Below are positions 8,573 through 55,252 of a stretch of 64,000 nucleotides of DNA, piece after piece. How positions within the stretch are numbered: the stretch's first letter is position 1; each line of letters begins with the position of its first letter. The stretch is from assembly GCA_963697085.1 (NCBI GenBank), contig CAVOMR010000002.1, positions 464,442 through 528,441 of the forward strand, given 5' to 3'. Source of the stretch: Candidatus Dormiibacterota bacterium. GTDB taxonomy: Bacteria > Chloroflexota > Dormibacteria > Aeolococcales > Aeolococcaceae. The position numbers and the translations under genes are program-made. The notes under the pieces are model-generated. The model was not told the origin of the DNA. It worked only from the letters and a program-made list of their open reading frames with translations, and made no database searches.

Positions 8573-10661
<2,089 letters not shown>

Positions 10662-39769: not shown

Positions 39770-40939
39770 GTGAGCATGGCAGCCGTCCCGCACAAGCTCG
39801 ACAGCCGGTATCTCGAGGCTCTCGGCCCACTGCGCCCGCTGGTCGATGACGACAGCCTCACCGAGATCATGGTCAACGGACCGGAGATGGTCTACGTCGA
39901 GCGCAAGGGCAAGATCCTTCTCACCGACATCCGTTTCGACGACGAGGCTCACCTCATGCGGGTGATCGACACGATCGGCGCCGCCGTCGGCCGCCGCATC
40001 GACTCCCGCACGCCGCTCATGGATGCGCGCCTCCTTGACGGATCCCGCGTGAACGCGGCAATTCCGCCGGTCGCACTCGACGGTCCCATCCTCACCATTC
40101 GTAAGTTCAGCAAGGATCCATACCAGGTCTCCGACCTGATCGGATTCGGCACACTGACGCAGGAAGCCGCGGCCTTCATCCAGGCATGCGTGCTCGCCCG
40201 CGCGAACATCCTCGTGTCGGGTGGAACCGGCACCGGTAAGACAACGCTCCTCAACGTCTGCTCGGGATTCATTCCCATCGATGAGCGCATCGTGACCATC
40301 GAAGACGCAGCCGAGCTCCAGCTGCACCAGGAACACGTCTGCCGTCTTGAGTCACGTCCCCCGGACGTCAACGGCGAAGGACGCATCGCGATCCGCGAGC
40401 TCGTCATCAACTCCCTGCGCATGCGGCCTGACCGCATCGTTGTTGGAGAGTGCCGTGGCGGTGAAGCCCTCGACATGCTCCAGGCGATGAACACCGGCCA
40501 CGACGGGTCGCTCACCACGATCCATGCGAACAGCCCACGCGAGACCCTGTCGAGGCTCGAGACACTGGTCCTCATGGCCGGACTCGACTTGCCCCTCAAG
40601 GCAATTCGCCAGCAGATCGCCGGCGCGATCAACCTGATCATCCAGCTGAACCGTCTCAAGGACGGATCGCGCAAGGTCGTCTCCATCACCGAGGTCATCG
40701 GCATGGAGGGCGAGATGATCACCGTGCAGGAGATCTTCAAGTTCGAGTCCCGCGGCGCGGATCCGTCGACCGGAAAGATCATCGGCGACTTCGAGCCGAC
40801 GGGCATCCGGCCGCGCATCATCGACAGGCTGTTCGACATGGGCATCCCGTTGCCGCCGCGCCTCGCGCAGATCTTCCCGGACCGCCGCCAGGTCGGTGTC
40901 GCCACCGAGAAGAACGGCCACCTCAGCGGAGTCGCGTAG
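39770..40939 (+). CDS. CpaF/TadA/VirB11-family secretion ATPase, compact form (389 aa, lacks the long N-terminal domain)
   Basis: LVSGGTGTGKTTLLNVCSGFIPIDERIVTIEDAAELQLHQEHVCRLESRPPDVNGEGRIAIRELVINSLRMRPDRIVVGECRGGEALDMLQAMNTGHDGSLTTIHANSPRETLSRLETLVLMAG; Walker A, Asp box, Walker B, His box. Confidence 0.88.
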   Translation: MSMAAVPHKLDSRYLEALGPLRPLVDDDSLTEIMVNGPEMVYVERKGKILLTDIRFDDEAHLMRVIDTIGAAVGRRIDSRTPLMDARLLDGSRVNAAIPPVALDGPILTIRKFSKDPYQVSDLIGFGTLTQEAAAFIQACVLARANILVSGGTGTGKTTLLNVCSGFIPIDERIVTIEDAAELQLHQEHVCRLESRPPDVNGEGRIAIRELVINSLRMRPDRIVVGECRGGEALDMLQAMNTGHDGSLTTIHANSPRETLSRLETLVLMAGLDLPLKAIRQQIAGAINLIIQLNRLKDGSRKVVSITEVIGMEGEMITVQEIFKFESRGADPSTGKIIGDFEPTGIRPRIIDRLFDMGIPLPPRLAQIFPDRRQVGVATEKNGHLSGVA

Positions 40940-40955
40940 CCACCTCCGACCGGGC

Positions 40956-41657: not shown

Positions 41658-41759
41658 TCAGGGAGGCGGTTCCACAACGGGAAGGCCGTCAGCCATGTGG
41701 ATGCGCCAGCCCTGCTCGTGCACCGCACGGTGGTGTCGCCGGCACAGCGAGACCAGGTT
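41658..41759 (-). pseudogene. 3'-terminal fragment of a REP13E12/DUF222-type HNH endonuclease gene (NLVSLCRRHHRAVHEQGWRIHMADGLPVVEPPP*)
   Basis: Minus-strand translation gives the canonical HNH tail (NLV-LC-RHH-VHE-GW); collinear with HNH pieces at 50252..50365 and 52191..53222. Confidence 0.75.
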
Positions 41760-41902
41760 GGTCGTCATCTACTGGCACTGACCGGCGGGCGCGGGGGATG
41801 TCATGTAGATAGCCCGCGTGCGCCTCTTCATAGGCAGCGGACGCGTTATCCCGGAACGCAGCTTCCGCGAACCAGACCGGCTCCACTTTAAGGGATGGTG
41901 CG

Positions 41903-43180
41903 ATGGAGCGAGACCAGATAGGTCGACATGAGCATATCGACACCGTCATAGCGCGTCAGGCGCGATGCAACACGGGCCTGCTTCCACATCGGCGCCATTT
42001 ACCGTTCCGGTGGCGACGGTCGCAGGTCACGTGGCCAGGCATCGCCACGCCACTGGTGGCAAGCCTCGTGCTGGCGGCCTGTGGCGCGAGCGCCACGTCA
42101 CCGGCCGCGGCGACCCCATCGGTCACGACCCCATCGGTCAACCCAACACCCTCAGCCGTTGCGCCCGCCGCAGAGCTGCAGCACCTCTGGATCGGCGCGC
42201 CACGCGTGGTCGCCCAGATCGGGACGGACCCGGTGCTCCCGGTGCTATCGATCGCCGGCAGCGCGATCTCGCTGAACATCGACCTCGGGCCGGTGGTCCT
42301 GGCATCGGACGCCGCAGCCAGCGGCCCGGGCACGCTGTCGCTCACGCTGCGCTCGCCCATGTACGGCTGCGCCACGGGCGCCGCAGGGACGTACGCGTGG
42401 TCCCTCGCGCCGGGCGGGGGCACCCTCACCTTGACCGCGAGCAACGATGCCTGCGCCGCGCGCGCGGCGGCCTTCGTCGGTACGTGGACCCGCTCGGATT
42501 GTCGCAACACCGCCGACGACTGCCTCGGGACGCTCCAGGCCGGGACACACGCGTCCACCTTCTTCGACGGACGCGACGCGTCGGCCGCCGTCCCCACCGA
42601 CGGGGCCTATGGCCAACTGCGATACACGGTGCCGGCCGGCTGGGCCAACAGCGAGGACTTCCCAATCGACTACGACCTCATGCCGGCGGCCGACTATGCC
42701 GGCGCGGCCGGCGTGACCGATGGCTCGGCCTACCACGGGATCTACATCTTCGCCCGGCCAGCGGCCCAAGCCGACAACGCGAGCTGTGCCAACCAGCTCG
42801 CGCCAGGCGTCGGCCAGACGCCGGCCGCCCTCGCCGCCTGGGTCGCCAACCGGCCCGGCGTTATCGCTACGAAGCCAACGGCCATCACGATCGGCGGCGA
42901 CCCGGGCTTCATGCTCGACCTCCACCTCGCGCCGAACCGCACGAAGCGGTGTCCCGGTGACAGCTTCCCCTCGCAAGGGCTCCTCGTCGACGCCGGTGGT
43001 GCGACCGACGGCTGGAACTGGGGCATCGGCGGCACCGAACAGCAGCGCCTCATCCTCTTGGCGATCGGCGGTGGCCACACCGTGGCCATCTTCGTCGACG
43101 ACAACTCCAGCCCGTCACGCTTTGGCGAACTCGTCGCCCAGGCGATGCCCATCATCACCACGTTCCAGTTCCCGCAATGA
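41903..43180 (+). CDS. Secreted lipoprotein, unknown function (Cys-containing extracytoplasmic domain)
   Basis: ...VTWPGIATPLVASLVLAACGASATSPAAATPSVTTPSVNPTPS (lipobox LAAC); real start probably the GTG near 42030; 425-aa track ORF. Confidence 0.6.
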   Translation: MERDQIGRHEHIDTVIARQARCNTGLLPHRRHLPFRWRRSQVTWPGIATPLVASLVLAACGASATSPAAATPSVTTPSVNPTPSAVAPAAELQHLWIGAPRVVAQIGTDPVLPVLSIAGSAISLNIDLGPVVLASDAAASGPGTLSLTLRSPMYGCATGAAGTYAWSLAPGGGTLTLTASNDACAARAAAFVGTWTRSDCRNTADDCLGTLQAGTHASTFFDGRDASAAVPTDGAYGQLRYTVPAGWANSEDFPIDYDLMPAADYAGAAGVTDGSAYHGIYIFARPAAQADNASCANQLAPGVGQTPAALAAWVANRPGVIATKPTAITIGGDPGFMLDLHLAPNRTKRCPGDSFPSQGLLVDAGGATDGWNWGIGGTEQQRLILLAIGGGHTVAIFVDDNSSPSRFGELVAQAMPIITTFQFPQ

Positions 43181-43323
43181 TCGACGGCCAGGGCGGCGGT
43201 GGACCGACGTTGGCCCCGCATCGGCGGCCGACGCCCAGGCCAGAGATCCGTCCGTCGATCCGCTCAGCCTTCCTTATTGCCGATGGGCGCAATGGCCGGA
43301 CGTGACGACGTGGGGAATATCCG

Positions 43324-43869
43324 GTGTGGGTCGGGATCATGATGCGGGCAGCAATGGCTGGCGAGCAGCGGGCGCTGAGAGACGAGGGAGACGCGAGTTT
43401 CGAAGCGTGTTTCACTGCCGAGGAGCACCGTCTTTTTGCGATCGCCATGTCGATCCTACGCGACCCGGCAGAGGCTCAGGACGCGACCCAGGAGACGGCA
43501 TTGATCGGATGGCGGCGGTGGAGTTCACTCCGGGATCCCGCGCGCTCAGGGGCGTGGCTGGCAAAGATCTGCGTGCACCACTGCGTGCGGCGCAAACGCT
43601 CGCTCGTCCGGTGGCTCAGTTTCGACCCATCCGTCCAGCAAGTTCGTGCGGAGGCAGATTTCCATATGCAGGATGGGGGGCGATTTGCCGATATGGACCG
43701 AGCCTACACACGGCTTTCGGCGCGCCAGCGCGCCGTCGTCAGCCTGCACTATCACCACGGCTACACGCTCGTCGAATGCGCGGATCTCATGGGGTGCAGC
43801 CCCGGATCCGTGTCGCAGCACCTCGCGAGAGCGCTCCGGTCGTTGCGAAGGGACCTCAGCGATGAATGA
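43324..43869 (+). CDS. ECF-type RNA polymerase sigma-70 factor
   Basis: Region 2: FEACFTAEEHRLFAIAMSILRDPAEAQDATQETALIGWRRW; region 4: LSARQRAVVSLHYHHGYTLVECADLMGCSPGSVSQHLARALRSLRRDL. Confidence 0.85.
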   Translation: MWVGIMMRAAMAGEQRALRDEGDASFEACFTAEEHRLFAIAMSILRDPAEAQDATQETALIGWRRWSSLRDPARSGAWLAKICVHHCVRRKRSLVRWLSFDPSVQQVRAEADFHMQDGGRFADMDRAYTRLSARQRAVVSLHYHHGYTLVECADLMGCSPGSVSQHLARALRSLRRDLSDE

Positions 43870-45002
43870 CAATCTTCAGAACTCGGCTCGACGCCTATCT
43901 CAACCGCTTCGAGACTTTTACGTCGCCACCGCTCGCCGTCAGGATCCCCGGGAGGCGCGCCAGACGACTGAACTTCCTGGCCGCCGCCGCTCTCGTTGCG
44001 GTCGTTGCCGTGGTTCTGGCCGCTCCAATCCTACTGTGGAGATTGGACGTCCGACACACGGCGCCAGCGGTGCCGCCGCTCCACCACAACGGGCAGATCG
44101 TGACGGGGCTCGGGAGCACCTTGGTCGCGTTGAACCTCGCCACCGGCGAGCAGCATGTGATCTTCTCCGACCCCGCGGGCGACGCAGTCCTCGATCCCGC
44201 GTACTCGCCGGATGGCACGAAGATCGCGTACCTCGAGGGTACCCTGCTCGACCACGGCATCGTGACAAACCCCACTTCGATTTGGGTCCTCGACACAACG
44301 ACCGGGCACACCCGGCTCCTCACGAGGTGTAGCGGGTGCGACATCTCCGACTACATCAGCTGGTCACCTGACGGTTCGCGTCTGGCCTTCTCTCAGGCTG
44401 ATCAGCGGGGAAGCCTGCAGCTCTATCTCATCGACGCCGACGGCAGCCACCTGACCCAGCTGACCCACTTCCCGGCTGCTCAGAACGCGGCGCAACCGAC
44501 GTGGTCCCCCGACGGCACGCGCCTTGCGTTCACTCTTTTCGGTATTGGAAACATCCCCAACCAGGGGGTGGTCTACACATCGGTCGACCTCGATGTCATC
44601 CGGGCCGATGGCACTGGGCTTGCCACGCTCCTCGCCAGTGGTCAGAACAGCAGCAACTTCACCATCTCCCAATACCTATTCCCGGCGTGGTCGCCAAACG
44701 GCTCTCGGATCGCGTACGTCCTCCTTGACCCGCCAGTGGCGGGCGGAGTCCCCCAGGCCCAGGTGTGGCTCATGAATCCCGACGGCTCGCATCGCACCGC
44801 GATCTTTTGGCAGAACGGCTGCTGCAGCGGCCTGGTGTGGTCACCCGATGGGACGCGGATGGTTGCCGCGACATTTGGTGGCGCTGGTTCTGGCGCGAAC
44901 CAGTCCGGGCTCTGGGTGATGAACGCCGACGGGTTTGCGGAAAAGGACACGAGCGAGATCAGCGACTACCTCGGCCGCCCGGCCTGGCAGCCAGTGCCGT
45001 GA
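43866..45002 (+). CDS. Membrane-anchored TolB-like beta-propeller (PD40 repeats) protein; candidate anti-sigma factor for the upstream ECF sigma
   Basis: ATGA overlap with the sigma gene; N-terminal cytoplasmic segment, TM (LNFLAAAALVAVVAVVLAAPILLW), then repeated ...SPDGTKIAYL..., ...WSPDGSRLAFS..., ...WSPDGTRLAFT..., ...WSPNGSRIAYV..., ...WSPDGTRMVA... Confidence 0.75.
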   Translation: MTIFRTRLDAYLNRFETFTSPPLAVRIPGRRARRLNFLAAAALVAVVAVVLAAPILLWRLDVRHTAPAVPPLHHNGQIVTGLGSTLVALNLATGEQHVIFSDPAGDAVLDPAYSPDGTKIAYLEGTLLDHGIVTNPTSIWVLDTTTGHTRLLTRCSGCDISDYISWSPDGSRLAFSQADQRGSLQLYLIDADGSHLTQLTHFPAAQNAAQPTWSPDGTRLAFTLFGIGNIPNQGVVYTSVDLDVIRADGTGLATLLASGQNSSNFTISQYLFPAWSPNGSRIAYVLLDPPVAGGVPQAQVWLMNPDGSHRTAIFWQNGCCSGLVWSPDGTRMVAATFGGAGSGANQSGLWVMNADGFAEKDTSEISDYLGRPAWQPVP

Positions 45003-45203
45003 CAAACCGTCAGGGCTATCCCAGCGGCAGCACCAGGGGGAACTGGTGGGCGATGACGCCTCGACGGTATCGATCATTCACGAGTGATGGGACTTCGTTG
45101 GGCTCATGATGATGCGCGCCGACGGCTCCGACCGCATGGTGACCTGGCATCCCACGCCACACACAGACAGATCCACACGCGGCCGGGTCTGGGGTAGCGC
45201 CCC

Positions 45204-46499
45204 ATGATGGAACGCCTGGGAACATCTGGCCCTCACACCCGGCGGAGGGCGATGCTGCGCCTCGCGGTTGTCGTCGTGATCGTTGGCGTTGCGTCATGGC
45301 TTGCCACTGGGCAGATCGGGCGCGCCGGGCAGCATTCAACGTCCGCGTCCTCGATCACCAGGTCTTCAGCGTCACCATCCTCGATCACCGGGTTCACAGC
45401 GTCACCATCCTCGATCACCGGGTCTTCAGCGTCACCATCCCTGACGTTGCCGGAGATCGGCCTTCTGTCCGGCGTGACCTGCGTGAGTGCACGAGATTGT
45501 TGGGCAGATGGTTCCAACGGATCATCAACACTGATGGTCCATTACGCCGGGAGTGGCTGGGCCTTCGTCACCGCTCCTTACCCGGCAGGGTCCACTGCTG
45601 CGTTGAACGGGGTGACCTGCGTGAGCGCTGACGATTGTTGGGCGGTTGGGAGTTCTGGCCCGGCGGGGCAGCCCGGTGATGCACCGCTGATCGAGCGCTA
45701 CACCGGGAGCAGCTGGACGATCGCCTCCGCCCCCGACCCTCGCCTCGGTCCGAACGTCGTGCTGAATGCAGTGGCCTGCATGAGCGCTGGGGAATGTTGG
45801 GCGGTTGGCGACTCCGGAAACGCCAGCGCCACCAGCCCACTGGTCGAGCGCTACACGGGGGGCCGCTGGGTGATCGTCGGCATCTCCAACCCGAGCCCGG
45901 ACCCGTTTGCTGTCTTGAATGGGGTGGCCTGCATGAGTAATGGGGAGTGTTGGGCGGTCGGCTACTCAGGCAATGTCAGCATCACCCGCCCATTGATCGA
46001 GCAGTACACGGGAAGCCGCTGGATCATCGTCGACGCGCGGAACCCCAGCGCAGCCCCCTTCGTCGCGCTGAATGCGATCGCCTGTGTTGGCCAACAGTGT
46101 TGGGCGGTTGGCTCGTCCGGCATCGGCGAGCCGGCGCTGCTCGAACACTTCACCGGAAGCACGTGGGTCATCGGCGCCCAATCCAGCGGGGGGGTCGCGA
46201 TCGGGGTGAGCTGTCCAAGCGTCGAGGACTGCTGGGCGGTTGGTCAGACCCAGCAACCAGCGATCGCCCAAGGTCCGCCGATGATCGAGCACTACAACGG
46301 GATCAGCTTGACAGCCGATCACACTCCAAACCAGATTGCGGGCGAAACCGGGGCCGTCTTAACTGGGGTGTCCTGCGTGAGTGTCTCGGACTGCTGGGCG
46401 GTGGGCTTTGGTGGGGGGGAGGGCAACCAGGGAACAATCATCGAGCAGTACACGGGGAGTGACTGGCGCGTGATTCGTGCTCTGAGCCACGGGCCGTGA
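45204..46499 (+). CDS. Signal-anchored secreted repeat protein with about 8 copies of a roughly 46-aa 'LNGVxCxSxxxCWAVG' repeat (novel; beta-propeller-like) after a Ser-rich linker
   Basis: LSGVTCVSARDCWADG / LNGVTCVSADDCWAVG / LNAVACMSAGECWAVG / LNGVACMSNGECWAVG / LNAIACVGQQCWAVG / GVSCPSVEDCWAVG / LTGVSCVSVSDCWAVG, each followed by ...ERYTGS(S/R)W(T/V)I...; N-terminal TM MLRLAVVVVIVGVASWLATG. Confidence 0.7.
   Translation: MMERLGTSGPHTRRRAMLRLAVVVVIVGVASWLATGQIGRAGQHSTSASSITRSSASPSSITGFTASPSSITGSSASPSLTLPEIGLLSGVTCVSARDCWADGSNGSSTLMVHYAGSGWAFVTAPYPAGSTAALNGVTCVSADDCWAVGSSGPAGQPGDAPLIERYTGSSWTIASAPDPRLGPNVVLNAVACMSAGECWAVGDSGNASATSPLVERYTGGRWVIVGISNPSPDPFAVLNGVACMSNGECWAVGYSGNVSITRPLIEQYTGSRWIIVDARNPSAAPFVALNAIACVGQQCWAVGSSGIGEPALLEHFTGSTWVIGAQSSGGVAIGVSCPSVEDCWAVGQTQQPAIAQGPPMIEHYNGISLTADHTPNQIAGETGAVLTGVSCVSVSDCWAVGFGGGEGNQGTIIEQYTGSDWRVIRALSHGP
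45344..45442 (+). repeat. Coding tandem repeat, about 3 x 33 nt (tcaccatcctcgatcaccgggtcttcagcg) encoding Ser-rich linker SASPSSITG-
   Basis: Protein: SASSITRSSASPSSITGFTASPSSITGSSASPS; nucleotide repeats read directly at 45344-45442. Confidence 0.8.
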
Positions 46500-46686
46500 C
46501 CGACGGCTCCCACACGTCGAGATCTGGCATCGCAACCCGAGCATGAACCTCGTTCATTCAGGCTAAGCTTGGGCCACTGCACCATGATGCAGCGGGCTGA
46601 GACGTCAGCATCGTATGGCCGGCGGAGTGCCGCGGATGCACGCGAGGCTTCGTCGTGAGCGTGGGGTGGTGTCCGGTGGGATTACG

Positions 46687-46716
46687 GAGGGGTTGTATTA
46701 ACGACGGACGAGGTTG
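46687..46716 (+). repeat. 30-bp direct repeat, copy 1 (gaggggttgtattaacgacggacgaggttg); 25/30 identical to 50241..50270; att-like
   Basis: Direct comparison of the two 30-mers; the shared 3' 11-mer ggacgaggttg is the reverse complement of the HNH codons for N-L-V. Confidence 0.7.
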
Positions 46717-46774
46717 ATCAATACCCTCTGCCGGGTCTAGATGCCTCCCTTGTCGCGGAGCGCCTGCAGCGCCT

Positions 46775-46978
46775 TCAGCGCAGCCAGTCGGCTTCGGAAT
46801 TGGGCTTCATCCGAACGAGAACGTCTCGAGCACGGAGGCAGTAACCGCACGTAGCACACTTCGAGCTCGGGCGGGCTGCAGGTAGATCACGTATCCCGAC
46901 GCTGGACTTCTGATATGTGAGCGGAACGAGTCGGGTCGAGTGACATCGCGGACATAGCAGCAAGGTTCCGTGGAGCAT
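46775..46978 (-). CDS. Small Cys-rich ORF (CxxC...CxxC zinc-ribbon-like), possibly a degraded gene remnant
   Basis: MLHGTLLLCPRCHSTRLVPLTYQKSSVGIRDLPAARPSSKCATCGYCLRARD; lies in a locally low-GC, gene-poor stretch. Confidence 0.2.
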   Translation of the reverse strand: MLHGTLLLCPRCHSTRLVPLTYQKSSVGIRDLPAARPSSKCATCGYCLRARDVLVRMKPNSEADWLR

Positions 46979-47034
46979 GCAGAATTTCGCAGGAGTGGGC
47001 CGTTGGCCGTTTTCGGTCGAGAATGGAGGCGGTA

Positions 47035-47280
47035 TTAGTAGATGTGGGCGGTCCGGACCATCCTCACCAAGTCCGTGAGGCGTGAATCGACGGCAATTCT
47101 CGTTGCACGACCCGCCAAGTCGCTGAGTTCACGATCAATATGATCGAGAATCGCGCTCACTTCGTCGTCGTTGAGCGAGAAGCCGACCACCGCGGCGGCG
47201 GCATCGATGTCCTGACTTCGGATGGTGACCGGGATCCGCACCTCGCGCGTCATTGCAGTGCTAACCATGGCGAGTATCAT
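47035..47280 (-). CDS. Hypothetical small protein (81 aa)
   Basis: MILAMVSTAMTREVRIPVTIRSQDIDAAAAVVGFSLNDDEVSAILDHIDRELSDLAGRATRIAVDSRLTDLVRMVRTAHIY; no confident family. Confidence 0.3.
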   Translation of the reverse strand: MILAMVSTAMTREVRIPVTIRSQDIDAAAAVVGFSLNDDEVSAILDHIDRELSDLAGRATRIAVDSRLTDLVRMVRTAHIY

Positions 47281-47726
47281 CGTCCTCCAGGGCGGGGCGG
47301 GAGGTGTAGTGGGCTTGTACGCCCGTTCCGTCTGGCATCCATCGTTTCCGAACGAGCGCCGATGCACAAGAGCCGAAGGTCCCGTTTGGCAGAACGGGAG
47401 GAGAGCCGATTGTCACATCGAAAACCGTCCGAACGACGAGGAGGAGCGTGCTGGCTGATCCCACTGTCGATGAGGACCGTCACCGCACCTGCTCAGAAGT
47501 CACGTCGCAGCGAGTTCTGCCGACCAGCGACGTCATGCGACGGAAGGGCCAATTACGATCGGCGAGTGAAGCTACCGCCTCTCGGCGTTACCCCCTGAAC
47601 ATTCGAAAGACGGCAAGCACCGGTGACGACCTTGGCTCGCCGACAAGTGACTGCACCCCAGCGTCCTTTCTCACAAAACAGACATCCGGCGCCATGTTCG
47701 CGATGATCTTCACCGACTGCCGGAAG

Positions 47727-48318
47727 TCACTTGACGACACCCGCGCCTGCCGCGTTGACGACTTCCCAGCGAGCTCCGAAGGCGTCGATCCCCTCGCCGT
47801 TCGCCACGCCCGGCGCCGAATCGGCGATGAAGTAATAGAGCGGATGACCGTCATAGGTAACTTGGGTCGTCCCGTTCTGGCGCTTGGTCGTGCCGAGCTG
47901 ACTCTGCAAGACGCCGCTCGTCGCTCGTGGGGCACCAATCGTGGTCAAAGGGGGCCAGTTCTGCGCGCACGCCCCTTACAGGTGGACGTCGTGCCTGCGT
48001 CACCCAGGAAGAGATATAGGGTTCTGCCGTTGCCTCCGACGAGGATCTGCCCCAGGTCACCGACGCTGCGCAAGGCCATTGCCGTGCCCGTCGCCGGAGC
48101 GGACGGTGCGGGCGTCGACGTCGGCTTGGCCGTGGCGTCGGCGTGGTTACAGTTGTCGGCGTCGGTGGCGGCGTTGTGGAAGATGGGGCAGTCGGGGTTG
48201 GAGATGTTCCGCCGATTGTGCCGGTGGTTGCAGACCCGCAGGCGGCGAGGATAAGCAGACTAAAGGTACCGCCCAACATCACGAGGTTCCGTGTCATCTG
48301 TCCGTGCTCCGCGGTCAT
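47727..48318 (-). CDS. COG4315-family secreted lipoprotein (Yx(F/Y)xxD motif family); frameshifted around 47990
   Basis: N-terminus MTRNLVMLGGTFSLLILAACGSATTGT... (lipobox) in ORF 47851..48318; C-terminus GTTQVTYDGHPLYYFIADSAPGVANGEGIDAFGARWEVVNAAG in ORF 47727..47948; the middle (LVGGNGRTLYLFLGDAGTTSTC...) is readable only by shifting frame at a GGGG run. Confidence 0.7.
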
Positions 48319-48503
48319 GGCCGCATATCCCGTTGACTCCTGAGTGGGTCACGAACCTCAATACGAGCGGCAGTTACGGATTACGGGAAACGACATCGGC
48401 GCCGCTACATTTCGCCGTCTGGCCCTGTAACTCAGCGCCGTACGAGGAGCGTTTCTGAGCGGTCGACTCCTCACGGTGCCCCCGTCGTCTCGCTACCCTT
48501 CTC

Positions 48504-49058
48504 GTGATGGTCGATCCTCTTCCTAAATCCGAGAGTGCCACCCAAGTGATCACGTGGAATGTGATCCCCGGCCGGGAGGCTGCCTTCGAGAACTGGGCAC
48601 ATGACATGACAACCCTCGCAACGCGCCAGGAGGGTCACATGGGCGCCGCGTGGTTGCGTCCGGAGGCTCGCGGTGGGGCCTACCACGTGGTCTTCCGGTT
48701 CACCACCACCGAGCTACTGCAACAGTGGATGGGCTCGGATGAACGGGCCGGAATGGTGGCGAACCTCAAAGGAATCGCAACCCAACAAGGCCACCAACAG
48801 ACGGGCTTGGAGACCTGGTTCAGCCTCCGTGGTCAGACCAACTTGCCTCCTCCAAAATGGAAAATGGCTCTCGTGACCTTCGGTGCGGTGTATCCGCTCA
48901 GCATCCTGTTCACCTGGCTCGTGGTGCCCTCGGTGCAAAGCTGGTCCATCGTTTGGCGCGCCGCGTTATTCCCCCTCGCTCTCGTTCCCCTGTTGACGTT
49001 CGTGATCATGCCGCGATTGAGTGGGCTGCTCAGACACTGGCTCTACGGAACAAGGTGA
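48504..49058 (+). CDS. ABM (antibiotic-biosynthesis-monooxygenase-like) domain protein with C-terminal transmembrane segment(s)
   Basis: QVITWNVIPGREAAFENWAHDMTTLATRQEGHMGAAWLRPEARGGAYHVVFRFTTTELLQQWMGSDERAGMVANL then WKMALVTFGAVYPLSILFTWLVVP...LFPLALVPLLTFVIMPRLSGLL. Confidence 0.6.
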   Translation: MMVDPLPKSESATQVITWNVIPGREAAFENWAHDMTTLATRQEGHMGAAWLRPEARGGAYHVVFRFTTTELLQQWMGSDERAGMVANLKGIATQQGHQQTGLETWFSLRGQTNLPPPKWKMALVTFGAVYPLSILFTWLVVPSVQSWSIVWRAALFPLALVPLLTFVIMPRLSGLLRHWLYGTR

Positions 49059-49222
49059 TGTTGATAAGGGCCGGGGACGATTCGTTTAACAGCCCGAGGG
49101 ACTGCCGATACGGGCACTACGAGAAATCAGTCGCATCGACAGCGCCACACCGAGCGAGTACTCGCGCGTTGTCGTCGTTGGCGTCGTCGCTTGCCGCAAT
49201 GAGGTCGTAGGAAGGAGCGAGC

Positions 49223-50083
49223 ATGGAACCCAGGGCGATCAACCCGATCGACTTCCGCGAGGCGCAGCACAAGCACTGGGACTCGGCTGCGGTCGGATGG
49301 ATGGAGTGGAGCGAGTTCAATGACAACGCCGACAGGCACATCAGCGAACGGCTCGTAGAGCTCGCTGATGTGCAGTCGGGAAGCCGGGTGCTGGACGTCG
49401 CCGCCGGCTACGGCGAACCGGCCCTCACCGCAGCGCGTAGGGCGGGCCCGGGTGGCCGCGTTGTGGCCACGGACATCTCCGCCGAGATGCTCGCGTTTGG
49501 GCGTGTACGCGCGGCCAAGGCCGGGTTGCGCAACATCGAGTTCTTGGAGTCCGACGCCTACAGCCTCGATTTTCCCGACGCGAGCTTCGACGCTGCCGTC
49601 TCGCGCTGGGGAATCATCTTCGAGCCTGACGCGGAGGCCGCCGCGCGGCACATCCGAGGCTTCCTCAAGCCGGGCGCACGGTTGGCGATCAGCTCCTGGG
49701 GCGAGCCCGCTCGGGTCCCCTTTCTCTCGATTCCTTTGAGGACCACGATGGAGCGGCTGGGCGTGCCTACGTCCCCAGCCGGAACGCCTGGGCCTCTCTC
49801 CCGGCCCACCCCCGCTGCCATCGGTGCGTTGCTCGAAGGAGGTGGGTTCTCGAAGGTCGCCGTGGAGCAGGACGAGGTCACCTTCGAGTTCAACTCCCCG
49901 GAGCACTTCACCGCCTACATCAGGGCGATCTCCGCGCCGATTCGGGCGATGATCGAGCAGTACGCGGGCGAGGCCCAGGAAGAGGCTTGGGACGCGATCA
50001 CGCACGCTGCAGCCAATGTGGGGGGTGGCTCGAACCCGCTTAGCTTCTCGAACGTGGTGCTGCTGGCCTCGGCAACCGCATAG
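49223..50083 (+). CDS. Class I SAM-dependent methyltransferase
   Basis: SRVLDVAAGYGEPALTAARRAGPGGRVVATDISAEMLAFG...IEFLESDAYSLDFPDASFDAAVSRWGIIF (motifs I, post-I, II). Confidence 0.8.
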   Translation: MEPRAINPIDFREAQHKHWDSAAVGWMEWSEFNDNADRHISERLVELADVQSGSRVLDVAAGYGEPALTAARRAGPGGRVVATDISAEMLAFGRVRAAKAGLRNIEFLESDAYSLDFPDASFDAAVSRWGIIFEPDAEAAARHIRGFLKPGARLAISSWGEPARVPFLSIPLRTTMERLGVPTSPAGTPGPLSRPTPAAIGALLEGGGFSKVAVEQDEVTFEFNSPEHFTAYIRAISAPIRAMIEQYAGEAQEEAWDAITHAAANVGGGSNPLSFSNVVLLASATA

Positions 50084-50240
50084 CCTCCCCTCGCGCTAAG
50101 AACCGCCTCGGGAATCCGGGAGAACTCAGGGGTGGCATCGTTGAGCGCGGGGTGGCATGGCTCGGTTCAGGTACGCCGTCGGGGCGTCAGGTGACGAGCC
50201 CGTTCCTCAGCCGTGGCTGATCTCACTCGGTGGGCTCCGC

Positions 50241-50270
50241 CAGGGGATGTACTAAGGATGGACGAGGTTG
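50241..50270 (+). repeat. 30-bp direct repeat, copy 2 (caggggatgtactaaggatggacgaggttg), at the junction between inserted DNA and the middle HNH fragment
   Basis: 25/30 identity with 46687..46716; 3' part encodes N-L-V of the HNH gene on the minus strand; the related core gaccaggttgg also occurs at 41751..41761. Confidence 0.7.
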
Positions 50271-50365
50271 TCGAGCTCGGTGGGACCGCCATCTGCCCAG
50301 TGGATGATGTGGTGGCCGTCGGTCCATTCAATCGGCCGGTCGCATCCCGGGAAACGGCAGCCCCG
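50252..50365 (-). pseudogene. Middle fragment of the REP13E12/DUF222-type HNH endonuclease gene (RGCRFPGCDRPIEWTDGHHIIHWADGGPTELDNLV-HP*), fused in frame to truncated istB
   Basis: Canonical HNH motif CxFxGC...HHIxHWxxGGxTxLxNLV; preceded without a stop by IstB ...TSNRGFGDWNQ. Confidence 0.8.
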
Positions 50366-51019
50366 TTGATTCCAGTCACCGAAGCCGCGGTTACTGGTGA
50401 GCACGATCGAGGCCTTCTCGTAGCGCCGGCTGACCATCTGAAAGATCCAGTTCGCCGACGCCTGATCGAGGGGCAGGTAGCCGAGTTCGTCGACCACCAG
50501 CACTGACGGACCGGTGTAGGTGCGCATCTTGTAGCTGGCCGTGCCCTCGAGGTGCGCCGACTGGAGGTTGGCCACCAGGTCGGCGGCGGATGTGAAGTAG
50601 GTGCGATAGCCGGCCTCGGTGGCGGCGATGCCGAGTGCAATGGCGAGATGCGATTTGCCCACACCGGGTGGCCCGAGCAGGATGACGTTGCGGCGCTCCT
50701 CGACGAAGCGCAGCGTGGAGAGTTCGGCGAGCACCGTGCGGTCGAGCGAGGGCTGGAAGTCGAGGTCAAACTCGGCGAGCGTCTTGTGAATCGGGTAGCG
50801 CGCAAAGCGCAGCCGTCCGCGCAGCCGACGTGCCCGGGTTGCATCCGCTTCGATCGCCATGAGGCGTTCCAACACCTGCGTCGCCGAGGCCTGCTCGCGC
50901 GTGCCGCGGTCGAGCTCGTCGGCAAGATGCTCTGCGGCGGCGCTCATTTCGAGGTACGCAAGATGTTCGCGCAGGCGCTGATACGCGCTGGGGTCCGAGC
51001 TGCTGGCACGCGGGCTCAC
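50366..51019 (-). CDS. istB: IS21-family transposition helper ATPase IstB (about 219 aa retained, C-terminally truncated)
   Basis: RNVILLGPPGVGKSHLAIALGIAATEAGYRTYF (Walker A)...SVLVVDELGYLPLDQASANWIFQMVSRRYEKASIVLTSNRGFGDWNQ. Confidence 0.85.
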
Positions 51020-52047
51020 AACGCCACCTCGTAGGCGCTGAGCGGACGCACCTCAACCTGCTCGCCGAGCTGACGTTGCGCGGCATCGACCACGTGCAGA
51101 ACGGGGCGCGCAGCGTCGTCGCCGGCAAAGCGTTCGAGCAGATGGCGGGGCACGGCGCTGAGCAGACGGCGTTCCTCGGCCCAGGCCTCGCCGATGATCC
51201 GCTGGGTGGTGCGGTGGCGGCGCGGCAGGATGCGCTCCCGGATCCAGCGCAGCGCGAAGGCGTCGTAGTCGGCGATGCTCGGCCGAGGCGGCAGCACCTG
51301 GCCGGTGAGCCAGCAGCGAAAGCTCTGCTCGACCTCACGGTTCTCGCGTTCGACCTTGCCTTTGGTTTTGGCGCGGTATGGCCGGCACGCACGGGGCACC
51401 GTGCCCAGCAGTGCGCAGAGGTCGATCCACTCGGGGACGAACAGTGGGCCGTCGGCGGCGTGGTTGCAGAACACCGTATCGCGGTCGGTGAGCAGCTCCC
51501 GCGTGACCCCACCGAGGTCGTCGAGGCAGCGCACCAGGCGCTCGAAGCTCACCTCCCGCGTGCAGCTGGCAGCGATCCGGATCGCGGGCATGCGGCTGTG
51601 CCCGAGGATCGCCACCATGGCGTGGAGCTCGACCAGCTCCTCGCCGAGCGGCCAGCTCCCGATGTGCTTCCAGTCCGCCTGGGTCTGCACACCGGGCAAC
51701 GTCTCGAAGCGCACCTCGGGGTCATGTGGCAGGGCGGGCCGGAGCGGACGGACCTGACGCAGGAAGGTCCAATAGCTGCCCGCATAGCCGTATTCGGTGC
51801 GCAGCTCGTGGTGCAGGTCGGTGCTGCGCAGCACCGGACAGACCAGCAGCCGGCATTCGATGTGGGCCAGCTGCGCTTCGTTGAGCGGGTGGCGCGGGGC
51901 GCGCTGCGGGTACCGAGACGGGCGCTCGGCGTCGAGCTCCCTGCGCACCGTGCGCCGGTTCAGCTTGAAGTGGCGGGCGAGCGCACTGACGCTCCATCCG
52001 TGTTGGTGCAGGACATGCAGTTCCATCCAGAGTTCCTCAAACTCCAC
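51016..52047 (-). CDS. istA: IS21-family transposase IstA
   Basis: MEFEELWMELHVLHQHGWSVSALARHFKLNRRTVRRELD (HTH)...WKHIGSWPLGEELVELHAMVAILGHSRMPAIRIAAS...TDRDTVFCNH...YRAKTKGKVERENREV (DDE domain). Confidence 0.85.
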   Translation of the reverse strand: MEFEELWMELHVLHQHGWSVSALARHFKLNRRTVRRELDAERPSRYPQRAPRHPLNEAQLAHIECRLLVCPVLRSTDLHHELRTEYGYAGSYWTFLRQVRPLRPALPHDPEVRFETLPGVQTQADWKHIGSWPLGEELVELHAMVAILGHSRMPAIRIAASCTREVSFERLVRCLDDLGGVTRELLTDRDTVFCNHAADGPLFVPEWIDLCALLGTVPRACRPYRAKTKGKVERENREVEQSFRCWLTGQVLPPRPSIADYDAFALRWIRERILPRRHRTTQRIIGEAWAEERRLLSAVPRHLLERFAGDDAARPVLHVVDAAQRQLGEQVEVRPLSAYEVAL

Positions 52048-52190
52048 GGCGGTCCCTCTTGGTGCTGGTGGCGTTGAACACCGTCCAGCTTGCCCGGAGG
52101 GACTGCCTTTTTTCCGATCACGATCAGGTCCGATCCACCCCTGAGGACCTGTGCACTATTGTGTCAGAACTGCGCATATTCTGTAAAGAG

Positions 52191-53222
52191 GTCGCGCACC
52201 ACCAGCGCAGTGCGGATGTGCACCGGGATGGTGCGCGCGGCGCGACCCACCGAGAGCGGCACCACCGGCGTCGTGACTGCCGAGAGCCACGCATCGGTAC
52301 CATCCGCACTATCCGAAGACAGCGGCACGGTCACCTCGGTCTTGACTGCGTCGCAGGCGATACGGCGTGCGGTCTCAGGATGGATCGGCCCCGCACCCTG
52401 GAGCGTCGCGGCCTCCGCATCCGCATCATTGCGCAGCGCTGGAGCACTCACCGTGACGGTGAGATGCGGCCGCTGCCCGTGCATCTCGGGAAGCGCAGCA
52501 GAGCGCAACTGCGAGGCAGCATGGTCGACCAGCGCATCCGCACGACGCTGCGACGCACTGCGCGTGTCCCCAGGACGGGGCATCTCGGTGATCGCATCGA
52601 GCCAGGTCTTGACCAGGGCGCCGCTTTCGGTGTCGAACTGCCCCTGGGAGAACCACTCACCGCCGTACGACTGATCGAGGTTGAACCAGCGGCGCTCGTG
52701 GGCACGGTTGTCAGCGGCAAGGACCCCGTCGGGATCGACCCGGAGCCGGGTTGCCTGGATGACGGTGCGCATCGGCCCGGCCTCGAGGGTCTCCGCCGCT
52801 CCCACCAGGATCATCTCCAGTGGAGCGATCTCCGCCACCCCGACCTCCTTGGCGAGGGAGGCAATCTGGGTCACGTTGCTCAACGAGGCACGGCCGGCAC
52901 GAGCGCTGTCGAGCGTGGCCGGCAGTTCGCTCAGGGTCCGCGCCAGATGCACGCGTTCGGCAGCCGCCTTCCCGGTCATGGCGCAGTGATGGCGCACCCA
53001 GGAGGTCGTGCTCACGCCTCCATCGGCGAGCGCACCGTGGGCGCGGTCGAAACGTCCCAGGCGACGCAGGCACTCAGCCTCGAGCCGGTCGATCAGCAGC
53101 CGGATGTCGATCACGTCCGCGCCCAGTGCGTGCGTCGAAAACCCCTCGATGGGCTCGGCGACGAGAGCATCAACCGCGCTCGTGAGACGGTCTCGGGCAT
53201 CGGGAATTGCGAACGCTTCCAT
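52191..53222 (-). pseudogene. 5' portion (DUF222 domain) of the REP13E12-type HNH endonuclease gene, interrupted after ...ALVVRD by the IS21 element
   Basis: MEAFAIPDARDRLTSAVDALVAEPIEGFSTHALGADVIDIRLLIDRLEAECLRRLGRFDRAHGALADGGVSTTSWVRHHCAMTGKAAAERVHLARTLSELP... typical DUF222; track ORF 52164..53222 ends LFTEYAQF*, which is IS-derived. Confidence 0.8.
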
Positions 53223-53596
53223 TCACGGAAGTATAGCAAACATGTGTTCGCCAATGCCTGGACTCAACACGGACAATGTGTGTCCGTGTCGACTTATTGC
53301 CATCTTCGGCAATAACAACCTCCCGCGTAGCTGGGACCATCGCCGACGACGACAACTCCCGCCTGCTTGTGCGCGAAGAAGCCCTGCACGGGAGGCGTCG
53401 CCGCCGAGTAGAACGGCCAACTCAGCGGAGTCGCGAAGCCCTTTCCGCGGCCGGCGTCAGTGACGATGCGCGCCTGCGCGCGCGCCGATCGGACTACCGC
53501 TCTTCTCGAGATGGTTCGTGGCGCGCGCGGTGGTATGCGACCAGGCAGAGAACGGCCGCGTATTCCAGGGAGGGCATCCCCGCACCGGAGCCGCGA

Positions 53597-55252
53597 CTAC
53601 GCGGAGCCGACCCCGTCCATCACGTGGATGGGCTGGAAGATGTCCTCGGAGATCTCCTCACCGGAGGTCGTCAGATGCTCGAGGAACGTGGGCAGCACGC
53701 CGGTCGGCATGTACGAGCCGACGACCTTCCCTTCCTCGTCGACGCCCACCTGCTTGTACGTGAAGATGTCCTGGAGCTGCACCTCGTTGTTCGTGCAGCC
53801 GAGCACCTCGGTGATGCTCACGATCTTGCGTGTGCCGTCGCGAAGACGCGACTGCTGCACGACGACGTTGACCGCGGAGCCGATCTGCTCGCGAATCGCT
53901 CGCGAGGGCAGCTCCGCGCCGGCCATGAGGACGAGCGTTTCGAGACGGCTGATGCAGTCGTGGGCGTTGTTCGCATGGAGCGTCGTCAGCGACCCGTCGT
54001 GGCCGGTGTTCATCGCCTGGAGCATGTCCAGCGCCTCACCGCCACGACACTCTCCGACGACGATGCGGTCGGGCCGCATGCGCAGCGAGTTGATCACGAG
54101 GTCTCGGATCGACACGCGGCCACGACCTTCGACGTTTGCCGGTCGCGTTTCGAGCGTCACGACATGGTCCTGGCGGAGCTGGAGCTCGGCGGCGTCCTCG
54201 ATCGTGACGATGCGCTCATCCTCGGGGATGAAGCTGCTGAGGATGTTGAGCGTCGTCGTCTTCCCGGAGCCGGTGCCACCACTCACCACCACGTTGAGCT
54301 TGCCGCGCACGCACGCGCGCAGGAACCTGACCATGTCCTCGGTGATCGACCCGTACTTGACGAGATCCTCGATGGTCAGCGCTTCCTTGGCGAACTTCCG
54401 AATGGTCATGGTCGGCCCGCGCAGCGCGAGCGGAGGGATGATCACGTTGACACGGGATCCGTCCTTGAGCCGTGCATCGACCATCGGCGACAACTCGTCG
54501 ACACGTCGGCCGATGCTGCTGACGATCCGGTCGATCACCTGCATCAGCTGCTGATCGCTCTCGAATGTCACCGGGCTCAGGGTCAACTTGCCATGCTGCT
54601 CAACATAGATCTGCTTGTAGCTGTTGATCATGATTTCGGTGATGTCCTCGCTCGCGAGCAGCTCCTCGAGCGGGCCGAGTCCGAGCACATCGTTGGTGAG
54701 GATCTCGACGAGACGCAACCGGTCCGGCCTGCTCATCGTGATGTTCTGCTCGGTGATCACATCGTTGAGCAGCTCCGCGATGCGCTGTCGAACGGTCTCC
54801 GGCGGCACCGAGTCGGTGCCCTGCGCCAGCTCCTCGACGAGACGCTGATGCACCTTGGCGCGGAGCGCGACATGCGTGTTGGTGTGCCCGCCCATCTTGC
54901 TGAGCCCCGGACGGCTGAGACCGCTCGCGCCGCTCGAGCGGTTCAGGAGCGAGGGTGCACGCTGCGGTTCCGCGGCGGCGGGCCGCTCAGCCTCGAACGG
55001 CCGTGGAGCCGGCGCCGCGGGCCGCACCGGTGCTGGTGCGGGTGCAGGTGCCGGCGCGGGGGCGGGCTGCTGCTGCTGTGGCGGGGACGCCGGCCCGGGG
55101 CCCTGGCGTTGCTGCCAGCCAGCTGGACGGTACCGATCGTTCTCGACGTCCGGGGTACGCTCGGGCGACGGGGCCGGGCCCGCCGGAGCGGCTGGGGTGG
55201 AGGGCGCGGGACCTCCCTCTGCCTTGCGCTGAACTCGGTCGAGCAACGACAT
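53597..55252 (-). CDS. cpaF: CpaF/TadA-family pilus/secretion ATPase, full-length form with Pro/Ala-rich N-terminal region
   Basis: ...VVSGGTGSGKTTTLNILSSFIPEDERIVTIEDAAELQLRQDHVVTLETRPANVEGRGRVSIRDLVINSLRMRPDRIVVGECRGGEALDMLQAMNTGHDGSLTTLHANNAHD...; N-terminus QQQQPAPAPAPAPAPAPVRPAAPAP. Confidence 0.9.
   Translation of the reverse strand: MSLLDRVQRKAEGGPAPSTPAAPAGPAPSPERTPDVENDRYRPAGWQQRQGPGPASPPQQQQPAPAPAPAPAPAPVRPAAPAPRPFEAERPAAAEPQRAPSLLNRSSGASGLSRPGLSKMGGHTNTHVALRAKVHQRLVEELAQGTDSVPPETVRQRIAELLNDVITEQNITMSRPDRLRLVEILTNDVLGLGPLEELLASEDITEIMINSYKQIYVEQHGKLTLSPVTFESDQQLMQVIDRIVSSIGRRVDELSPMVDARLKDGSRVNVIIPPLALRGPTMTIRKFAKEALTIEDLVKYGSITEDMVRFLRACVRGKLNVVVSGGTGSGKTTTLNILSSFIPEDERIVTIEDAAELQLRQDHVVTLETRPANVEGRGRVSIRDLVINSLRMRPDRIVVGECRGGEALDMLQAMNTGHDGSLTTLHANNAHDCISRLETLVLMAGAELPSRAIREQIGSAVNVVVQQSRLRDGTRKIVSITEVLGCTNNEVQLQDIFTYKQVGVDEEGKVVGSYMPTGVLPTFLEHLTTSGEEISEDIFQPIHVMDGVGSA

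Follow-up and report, generated by a model that had tools for sequence, protein, structure and literature searches.

The 64,000-nt stretch of Candidatus Dormiibacterota DNA analysed here (the window) contains, on its minus strand, a DUF222-HNH gene of the REP13E12 type that is split into three collinear pieces. The second of the two gaps is filled by two tandem gene cassettes, designated A and B, whose ends share a short core with each other and with the interrupted gene. Breaks at the same codon, followed by the same motif, recur in other Dormibacterota genomes and in metagenomes, where cassettes are aligned head-to-tail in arrays and are reassorted at the core. These arrays are probably non-autonomous and site-specific, with an integron-like logic in which the HNH gene serves as the landing pad.

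Read along the minus strand, piece 1 (52191..53222, codons 1-344) comprises the DUF222 domain and ends with ...ALVVRD, piece 2 (50261..50365, codons 345-379) reads RGCRFPGC...TELDNLV, and piece 3 (41658..41759, codons 377-409 and the stop codon) reads NLVSLCRRHH...EPPP* and begins with the core AACCTGGT (41759-41752); the translations are exactly as given in the original prediction, which had described the gene from the letters alone. When the pieces are joined and NLV is counted once, a DUF222-HNH protein of 409 amino acids (aa) results that matches Pfam DUF222 (PF02720, E=3.7e-24, residues 51-296) and HNH (PF01844, positions 3-46 of 47, E=2.1e-9). The HNH motif is complete only with piece 3 added, the open reading frame (ORF) in which an istB fragment (see below) is fused to piece 2 matching PF01844 at positions 3-34 only. 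Using the joined protein as query against 5.8 billion proteins, we recovered 6256 relatives, the closest intact ones being Candidatus Dormibacterota proteins of 403-430 aa with 83-85% identity at 100% query coverage. The joined protein aligned over its full length with ten intact homologs (72-85% identity), all invariant residues of the HNH region were present in the multiple alignment, and no gap and no lost or repeated residue was seen at either junction (ALVVRD|RGCRFPGC and TELDNLV|SLCRRHH). Alignment at the DNA level to the intact genes of L001 and L002 (L-numbers denote related loci that were compared with the window) placed the breakpoints at 52191, ~50362-50365, 50261 and 41759. An apparent extension of the alignment 5' of piece 3, as a second degraded HNH copy might give, did no better than shuffled sequence when the upstream part was scored alone (24 versus a shuffle mean of 23.8), and piece 3 as the tail of a second decayed paralog is therefore disfavoured. 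The reading as one gene in three collinear pieces is thus confirmed by end-to-end alignment to intact homologs, and the derivation of the fragments from different paralogs, the outcome that the original prediction itself had named as fatal to it, is disfavoured by the full-length collinearity and by the lack of a second HNH remnant beside piece 3. On the structural side, an AlphaFold2 model of an intact homolog was too poor for a fold search (mean predicted local distance difference test score of 54.6), and the only match in a sequence search of the PDB was the HNH domain of IscB (E=0.01). The copy in the window would have been inactivated twice, by a fragment of an IS21-family insertion sequence (IS) at codons 344/345 and by the cassettes in the N-L-V codons.

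A repeat search revealed a second copy, 3.5 kb away at 46716-46674, of 43 nt that span the end of piece 2 (repeat family D11). The shared sequence, CAACCTCGTCC(A/G)TC(C/G)TTA(G/A)TACA(T/A)CCCCT, has a chance expectation of 0.00 in the window, and no HNH sequence lies upstream of the copy at 46716. The 8-nt core AACCT(C/G)GT is present three times on the minus strand, at 50269, 46715 and 41759, and a profile made solely from sites of other genomes detected exactly two full sites in the window, at the junctions J1 (E=5e-15) and J2 (E=3e-10). J1 (50215..50269, minus strand) consists of the core AACCTCGT (50269-50262), box1 CCATCCTTAGTACATCCCC and box2 CCGAGTGAGATCAGCC (50230-50215), whereas J2 (46689..46715, minus strand), the boundary between A and B, consists of the core AACCTCGT and box1 CCGTCGTTAATACAACCCC, without HNH sequence before it; the core at the start of piece 3 constitutes J3. 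The order on the minus strand is thus HNH 5' part, core, cassette A (3.5 kb, 50261->46716), core, cassette B (4.9 kb, 46707->41760), core and HNH 3' part. The insertion of ~8.5 kb that had been proposed for this gap was correctly described as carrying accessory genes and no integrase, but it resolves into two tandem cassettes with a third copy of core and left end at 46715, and the overlap on NLV, which had been taken for a target duplication, is real as far as the shared codons go but is the recombination core shared by cassette sites of a widespread family. Over 228 nt, the right end of cassette B (41760-41968) shows 92% identity to L096:843-1068. In L096 the matching stretch, which in cassette B makes up the last ~210 nt, is followed by AACCTCGTC and the left end of a different cassette instead of the HNH 3' piece. 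The sigma/anti-sigma genes of cassette B are 80% identical to a pair in another cassette (L157), and the GC content across the cassettes (window 43000-50000) is 0.61-0.65, compared to 0.69-0.73 in the flanking chromosome.

That the breakpoint is not peculiar to the window emerged from a genome scan with the joined protein (one genome per species, 80 loci kept), in which seven loci, all in Dormibacterota genomes, matched only up to residue 379, the V of NLV. The view of this gene family as an integration hotspot is correct. In each of them the breakpoint is marked by AACCTCGTC and CAT(C/G)GTTA(A/G)TACA(A/T)CCCC, followed by unrelated DNA, and in four of the seven the 3' HNH piece lies 1.2, 2.1, 3.9 or 4.5 kb downstream. 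Inside the inserts, core and motif occur again, in every case oriented like the gene. Another 95 stretches came from metagenome contigs scanned for the pattern, for a total of 127 distinct sites in 178 loci, while scans for the site returned no match in viral contigs and one irrelevant Arthrobacter match in a plasmid collection. All sites lie on one strand in 36 of the 37 loci with at least two of them, and the arrays are accordingly head-to-tail. The 57 bounded cassettes measure from 141 bp to 8 kb (median ~1.4 kb), contain genes in both orientations and carry accessory cargo (SnoaL, Vgb lyase, SMP-30, ABC transporters, hydrolases, GNAT, sigma factors, and TIR, GGDEF and HD domains).

Comparison of arrays showed the cassettes to be discrete units that are reassorted at the core. 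L069 and L097 share a 600-bp glyoxalase cassette at 93-100% identity, with both flanks unrelated, and the identity starts and stops inside AACCTCGT. Likewise, one right end (…PYAGATKLD) precedes four different left ends, and one left end follows three different right ends. Two long occupied HNH sites (L031 12946-21122 and L079 14017-20907), in which the 3' HNH piece is not reached within 10 kb, have a cargo of putatively defence-like genes, among them one for a protein with a TIR domain, an ORF of 971 aa resembling a helicase and another resembling a DNA methylase, along with putative IS110- and IS256-type transposases recognized by eye.

The anatomy of the site was derived from 124 sites of a search anchored on box1 only. 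The left end of a cassette comprises the core AACCTCGT, invariant in ~120 of the 124 sites, box1 CCATCGTTAATACAACCCC and, in about one third of sites, a second box, ~CCGAGTGAGATCAGCGTCGGCTG, at +38 to +43 that forms at best a weak hairpin. Conservation also extends upstream of the core, to position -28, with G at -27 in 85% of sites, A at -22 in 90%, followed by CC and by T (-15), G (-13) and C (-11); the conserved stretch, usually the ~20-28 nt that precede the core, spells the HNH coding sequence GG.T.L.(D). The HNH-like sequence upstream comes in lengths of 0, ~6, 9, 14 or 19-21 codons or else comprises everything in the gene that lies 5' of the NLV breakpoint, and a common right end that is not HNH, CGATGGTTTGCAAGACGCAGTTGGATGGCC, retains the five key positions when read by eye. 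The right end of cassette A (46716-46790, minus strand) is a fragment of a medium-chain dehydrogenase/reductase (MDR)/quinone-oxidoreductase gene that matches L038:20434-20507 (...GQKVLIN|GASGGVG) and is fused in the window at ATCAAC|CTCGTC. It fits four of the five key left-half positions as well as CAAC, as expected for a pseudo-site, and judging from the sequence this end is a putative look-alike site in an ordinary gene. At the core itself, AAC is invariant and preceded by C in 90 and by G in 29 of the 124 sites, and the whole of AACCTCGT is common to both partners. Most intact genes and five of five 3' (J3) junctions have CTG as the Leu codon that follows AAC, but 114 of the 124 sites have CTC; this switch therefore places the exchange inside (C)AACCT.

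Several other interpretations of the site did not hold. A structured RNA or DNA element at the left end was rejected in view of a weak consensus fold (-0.23 kcal/mol, 5 weak pairs) and the lack of an Rfam match at the gathering threshold throughout the window. Terminal inverted repeats, GATCTCAC near right ends versus GTGAGATC at left ends, were found at only ~9 of 127 sites and are not general, and similarity to dif/Xer or integron core sites, compared by eye, was unconvincing. A class of right ends was seen in L091, L095, L101, L130, L133, L138, L145 and L148, ~60-100 nt upstream of sites, in which an HNH-like stretch of 19-21 codons follows a conserved ...CAACNTACATTTGTGGATTGAC and, farther upstream, GATCTCAC, the reverse complement of the core of the left-end box2; this class may represent a sublineage with inverted terminal motifs.

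The first gap has a different content. It holds a 9-nt filler, CTCTTTACA (52182..52190, minus strand), and ~1.8 kb of IS21-family DNA (50366..52181, minus strand) with the inner left-end repeats, istA and the 5' part of istB. The filler matches neither the HNH gene nor IS21 and looks like filler at an end-joining junction. The tandem arrangement of istA and istB is that of the IS21 family: istA (51016-52047, minus strand; 343 aa) is full length for its IS21 subfamily, and its 73-91%-identity homologs are named IS21 family transposase, its rve match of 29.4 bits lying under the Pfam cutoff of 32.6; istB (50366-51019, minus strand; IstB_IS21 E=2e-62, profile positions 3-201 of 238) ends after codon ~218 (...SNRGFGDWNQ) and continues in frame into HNH piece 2. 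The intact IstB of L182 has 46 further codons before a right end with repeated GGCGACTTTTCGTGATCA motifs, whereas in the window the homology to L182 and L186 ends at 50367-50372 and the missing right end is nowhere else to be found. At the left end of the IS21 DNA, homology to L185 begins at 52181, so that the outer 13 nt, TGTTGGTGAGCAG with the TGT terminus, are absent and neither terminal inverted repeat is complete. A target-site duplication of 4-8 bp was not found: the flanks, ...GTGCGCGAC and CGGGGCTGC..., have no sequence in common, and no residue is repeated where the gene resumes. Because both termini are missing and no target duplication is present, this DNA is not a normal transposition product; the IS21 element originally proposed for this gap is thus IS21-derived, as claimed, but a fragment. 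The fragment and its filler would have been captured when a DNA break separated codons 344 and 345, which we infer because two independent deletions that restore the HNH frame exactly are improbable.

How do the cassettes come to lie where they do? We favour conservative site-specific recombination, since the core is identical on both sides, conservation is two-sided, the arrays are head-to-tail and whole units are reassorted, with an occasional pseudo-site. Each cassette would run from a conserved left end to just before the next copy of the core, and would enter and leave by an exchange inside (C)AACCT. In this exchange a cassette site would pair either with its counterpart in the HNH gene or with the site of another cassette, and now and then with a look-alike in an ordinary gene, a recombinase being provided in trans. 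Conserved, dispensable and present in many copies, the selfish gene would make a safe landing pad. Our literature search found no description of cassette arrays in HNH genes or of the position of the phiRv1 crossover. At slightly less than even odds, we would go further and regard the arrays as an undescribed cassette system of integrase-less units of 0.14-8 kb, with a site of ~55-75 nt whose left half mimics HNH, served in trans by a new dedicated recombinase or, more speculatively, by the DUF222-HNH protein itself. On this view every HNH copy would be a potential array site, and cassettes could hitch-hike on the gene as it spreads horizontally.

A number of observations weigh against recombination of this kind. 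Neither a recombinase nor a Phage_integrase domain was detected by Pfam in the ORFs of the window cassettes, in keeping with the original prediction of no recognisable integrase in the 8.5 kb, and a tblastn search of the window with two tyrosine integrases for degraded recombinases yielded nothing below E=0.2. Among 70 cassette ORFs, no recombinase family was found among the 25 commonest of 77 Pfam families, a single instance in the remaining families being possible. The only integrase near a site (PF00589, 0.8 kb away in L133) is part of a tRNA-Phe island. We considered and rejected this tyrosine integrase as the cassette recombinase: its homologs always lie beside tRNA-Phe at one chromosomal spot, and L133 is the same locus. 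No excised circle and no empty/occupied polymorphism of the same locus were seen. By eye, the core is flanked by no more than a weak inverted repeat of 5 bp; the site shows no convincing structure and is thus unlike a classic tyrosine-recombinase core or attC, and its left half could be conserved through descent from HNH genes and not because of a function. In the window, box1 of J1 has three changes from the consensus, J2 is without box2, and the right end at J3, read by eye, fits only one of the five key left-half positions. As the sites of the window are somewhat degenerate, this array may be a fossil. For the first gap, the origin of the IS21 fragment by break capture is pure inference.

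The tRNA-Phe islands merit description in their own right. This variable island, located after dtd in related Dormibacterota (L178/L179 9751-19000, L181-L183 and L133), encodes a tyrosine integrase, accompanied in some cases by a large serine recombinase and a Rep-like gene of the rolling-circle type. It also holds the same cassette sites, in arrays 5-8 kb away that have no HNH gene. The arrays are hence not confined to HNH genes.

The main rival to site-specific recombination is a rolling-circle or single-strand mechanism, which we regard as unlikely. According to this scheme, one-ended transposition by an HUH-type enzyme (IS91/ISCR- or IS200/IS605-like) would start at an origin-like left end nicked after ...AAC, copy arbitrary adjacent DNA, stop at sequences resembling AAC|CTSGTC, such as the HNH NLV codons, and insert the product 3' of an xAAC target. 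Much of the anatomy could be accommodated in this way: strong conservation is limited to the left end, right ends being heterogeneous and lengths widely variable, the arrays are strictly head-to-tail, cassette A ends in an ordinary gene at ...ATCAAC, and the discrete HNH 5' lengths at right ends fit termination at HNH genes with subsequent trimming. Moreover, the CAAC or GAAC before the junction resembles the target of IS91, which is GAAC/CAAG. However, the transposase gene of IS91/ISCR elements adjoins the origin end and moves with it, and no such gene was seen here, nor was a Y1 or Y2 transposase found among the 25 commonest Pfam families of the 70 cassette ORFs, in ten large ORFs that lie close to sites and were scanned individually, or in the cassettes of the window. 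In addition, conservation over 28 nt upstream of the core exceeds what a 4-nt target needs, and no hairpin is present at the putative nick site.

Less probable again, in our judgement, is that the arrays are the wreckage of autonomous elements (phages, integrative and conjugative elements (ICEs) or tycheposon-like elements) that integrated successively at an attB in the HNH gene and then lost their integrase modules, much like cis-mobilizable elements (CIMEs). In favour of this, the units have accumulated in tandem at one attB, every boundary carries att-like repeats, REP13E12 is a known prophage target in Mycobacterium tuberculosis, and the longer L031 and L079 sites combine defence-like genes with IS elements; yet none of the ~100 loci has an integrase-bearing member at the site, small cassettes (median ~1.4 kb, minimum 141 bp) keep an intact left end that random decay is unlikely to preserve, and the 600-bp cassette moves as a unit. 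We attach very little credence to the proposal that the pieces stem from different HNH paralogs brought together by rearrangement, or from mis-assembly of a multicopy gene. In its favour, the family is highly multicopy (6256 homologs, and within a genome several copies that are 90-98% identical), pieces 2 and 3 (35 and 33 aa) are too short to be assigned by best hit to one paralog, and the exact window proteins were not traced to other assemblies. Nevertheless, the pieces lie in order on the same strand with zero residues lost or repeated at both junctions, piece 3 has no second HNH remnant beside it, and the occurrence of breakpoint and motif in seven independent genomes and 95 metagenome stretches indicates that this type of junction is biological; a chimeric join within a repeat would, besides, be expected to yield an intact-looking gene.

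The landing gene is itself a multicopy repeat. The closest intact homologs sit among unrelated housekeeping genes, and hence not at an orthologous locus, and in related genomes (the source genome aside) copies inside a single genome are 90-98% identical in unrelated contexts. Homology extends from ~95 nt before the ATG to 3-10 nt beyond the stop codon and defines a unit of ~1.36 kb, the 5' leader of which (53223..53316, minus strand, in the window) is conserved in 17 copies. The leader consensus is a hairpin, GTTATTGCC-N6-GGCAATAAC, followed by a TATAAT-like box; the window has the hairpin GTTATTGCC-gaagat-GGCAATAA at 53316-53294, a second hairpin and a TATACT -10-like box at 53235-53230. With a DUF222 domain, a C-terminal HNH domain and a dispersed multicopy unit of ~1.4 kb, the gene has the attributes of the REP13E12 family, and this matches the published picture of the mycobacterial REP13E12/13E12 repeats, which are multicopy, the target of phiRv1, SOS-induced and located at inversion breakpoints. 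The ends of the unit are sharp in the window (53294-53316) and in L001-L057 (near position 9900), and no obvious target duplication or terminal inverted repeats were seen there. On a larger scale, a 47-nt direct repeat (42 of 47 identical) on the plus strand at 40895-40941 and 53394-53440 brackets a 12.5-kb segment with a lipoprotein ORF, the HNH unit, the IS21 fragment and the cassettes. The first CpaF/T2SSE ATPase gene (39770-40939) has the first copy at its 3' end, the second copy lies just outside the HNH unit, and the repeats could be the trace of a larger integration at the cpaF 3' end. A second, paralogous ATPase gene (53597-55252, minus strand) faces the first (inverted repeats I1 and I2).

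Based on Pfam, the cargo of cassette A includes a methyltransferase (49223-50083, plus strand), an ABM-domain membrane protein (48504-49058, plus strand), a putative lipoprotein (47851-48318, minus strand) and small ORFs at 47035-47367 and 46775-46978 (both minus strand). Cassette B encodes, all on the plus strand, a secreted CWAVG-repeat protein (45204-46499), a PD40 beta-propeller anti-sigma-like protein (43866-45002), an extracytoplasmic function (ECF) sigma factor (43324-43869) and a 425-aa lipoprotein (41903-43180). The 431-aa CWAVG protein has ~seven 153-nt (51-aa) repeats with a C-W-A-V-G motif (window 45330-46470), preceded by three 30-nt SSITG-type repeats, and matches no Pfam family above threshold, with only a weak hint of a Rax2 beta-propeller.

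To our knowledge, few systems besides integrons collect and reshuffle small recombinase-less cassettes at a defined site, and none has been described for the Dormibacterota, an abundant, essentially uncultured phylum of soil and permafrost. If our interpretation is true, the site would offer a searchable handle on the exchange of accessory genes (sigma factors, hydrolases, transporters, and resistance- or defence-type genes) in these bacteria, and a selfish nuclease gene of a family known from M. tuberculosis would act as a genome-wide landing pad. The recombination site so defined is short, and its enzyme could be found by phyletic profiling and might serve genome engineering. For annotation, DUF222 ORFs shortened at ...NLV-HR* would mark cassette arrays and not simple pseudogenes.

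Among known systems, the integron is close in logic. In both cases small recombinase-less units with one site each are lined up head-to-tail at one landing site, the same cassette occurs in different arrays with exact boundaries, and the cargo is accessory (GNAT, glyoxalase, SnoaL-type). However, no IntI gene lies beside the landing site here, and the site is conserved in sequence and not in structure, without R''/R' boxes (RYYYAAC / GTTRRRY), GTTAATA and GTTAGTA failing by eye to fit GTTRRRY. The cassettes described here have up to ~five genes each, in both orientations, and their landing site lies inside a mobile multicopy nuclease gene, many per genome, with arrays also away from HNH. Lacking IntI and attC architecture and with genes in both orientations, the system is not an integron. 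Integrase-less satellites in tandem arrays are also represented by the CIMEs of Streptococcus ICESt1/3 and by the cargo-only tycheposons at Prochlorococcus tRNA genes, which resemble our cassettes in being cargo-only, flanked by att repeats, in tandem at one attB and dependent on a recombinase from another element. In contrast to these, attB is here an internal HNH coding segment, not a tRNA gene or gene 3' end, the gene is not restored, and no cognate integrase-bearing element was found among the loci. The likeness to phiRv1 of M. tuberculosis is one of target only, in that a DUF222-HNH 13E12 repeat serves as a multicopy attachment site; phiRv1 is prophage-like and encodes its own large serine integrase (Rv1586c), whereas the small cassettes have none, and they share with self-encoded integrative elements the direct-repeat att core at both ends and not the integrase inside the insert. 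The pdif modules and integrative mobile elements exploiting Xer (IMEX), which use host XerC/D, are likewise recombinase-less modules with short conserved sites that are reassorted and depend on a host enzyme, although the site here shows, by eye, no convincing likeness to dif, is arranged in direct and not alternating repeats, and lands elsewhere than at dif. With IS91/ISCR elements, finally, the cassettes have in common one well-conserved end, a variable mobilised length, what may be a short xAAC-type target and the lack of classical inverted repeats, but they are set apart by the absence of a Y2 transposase beside the conserved end and by a conservation that also reaches across the junction.

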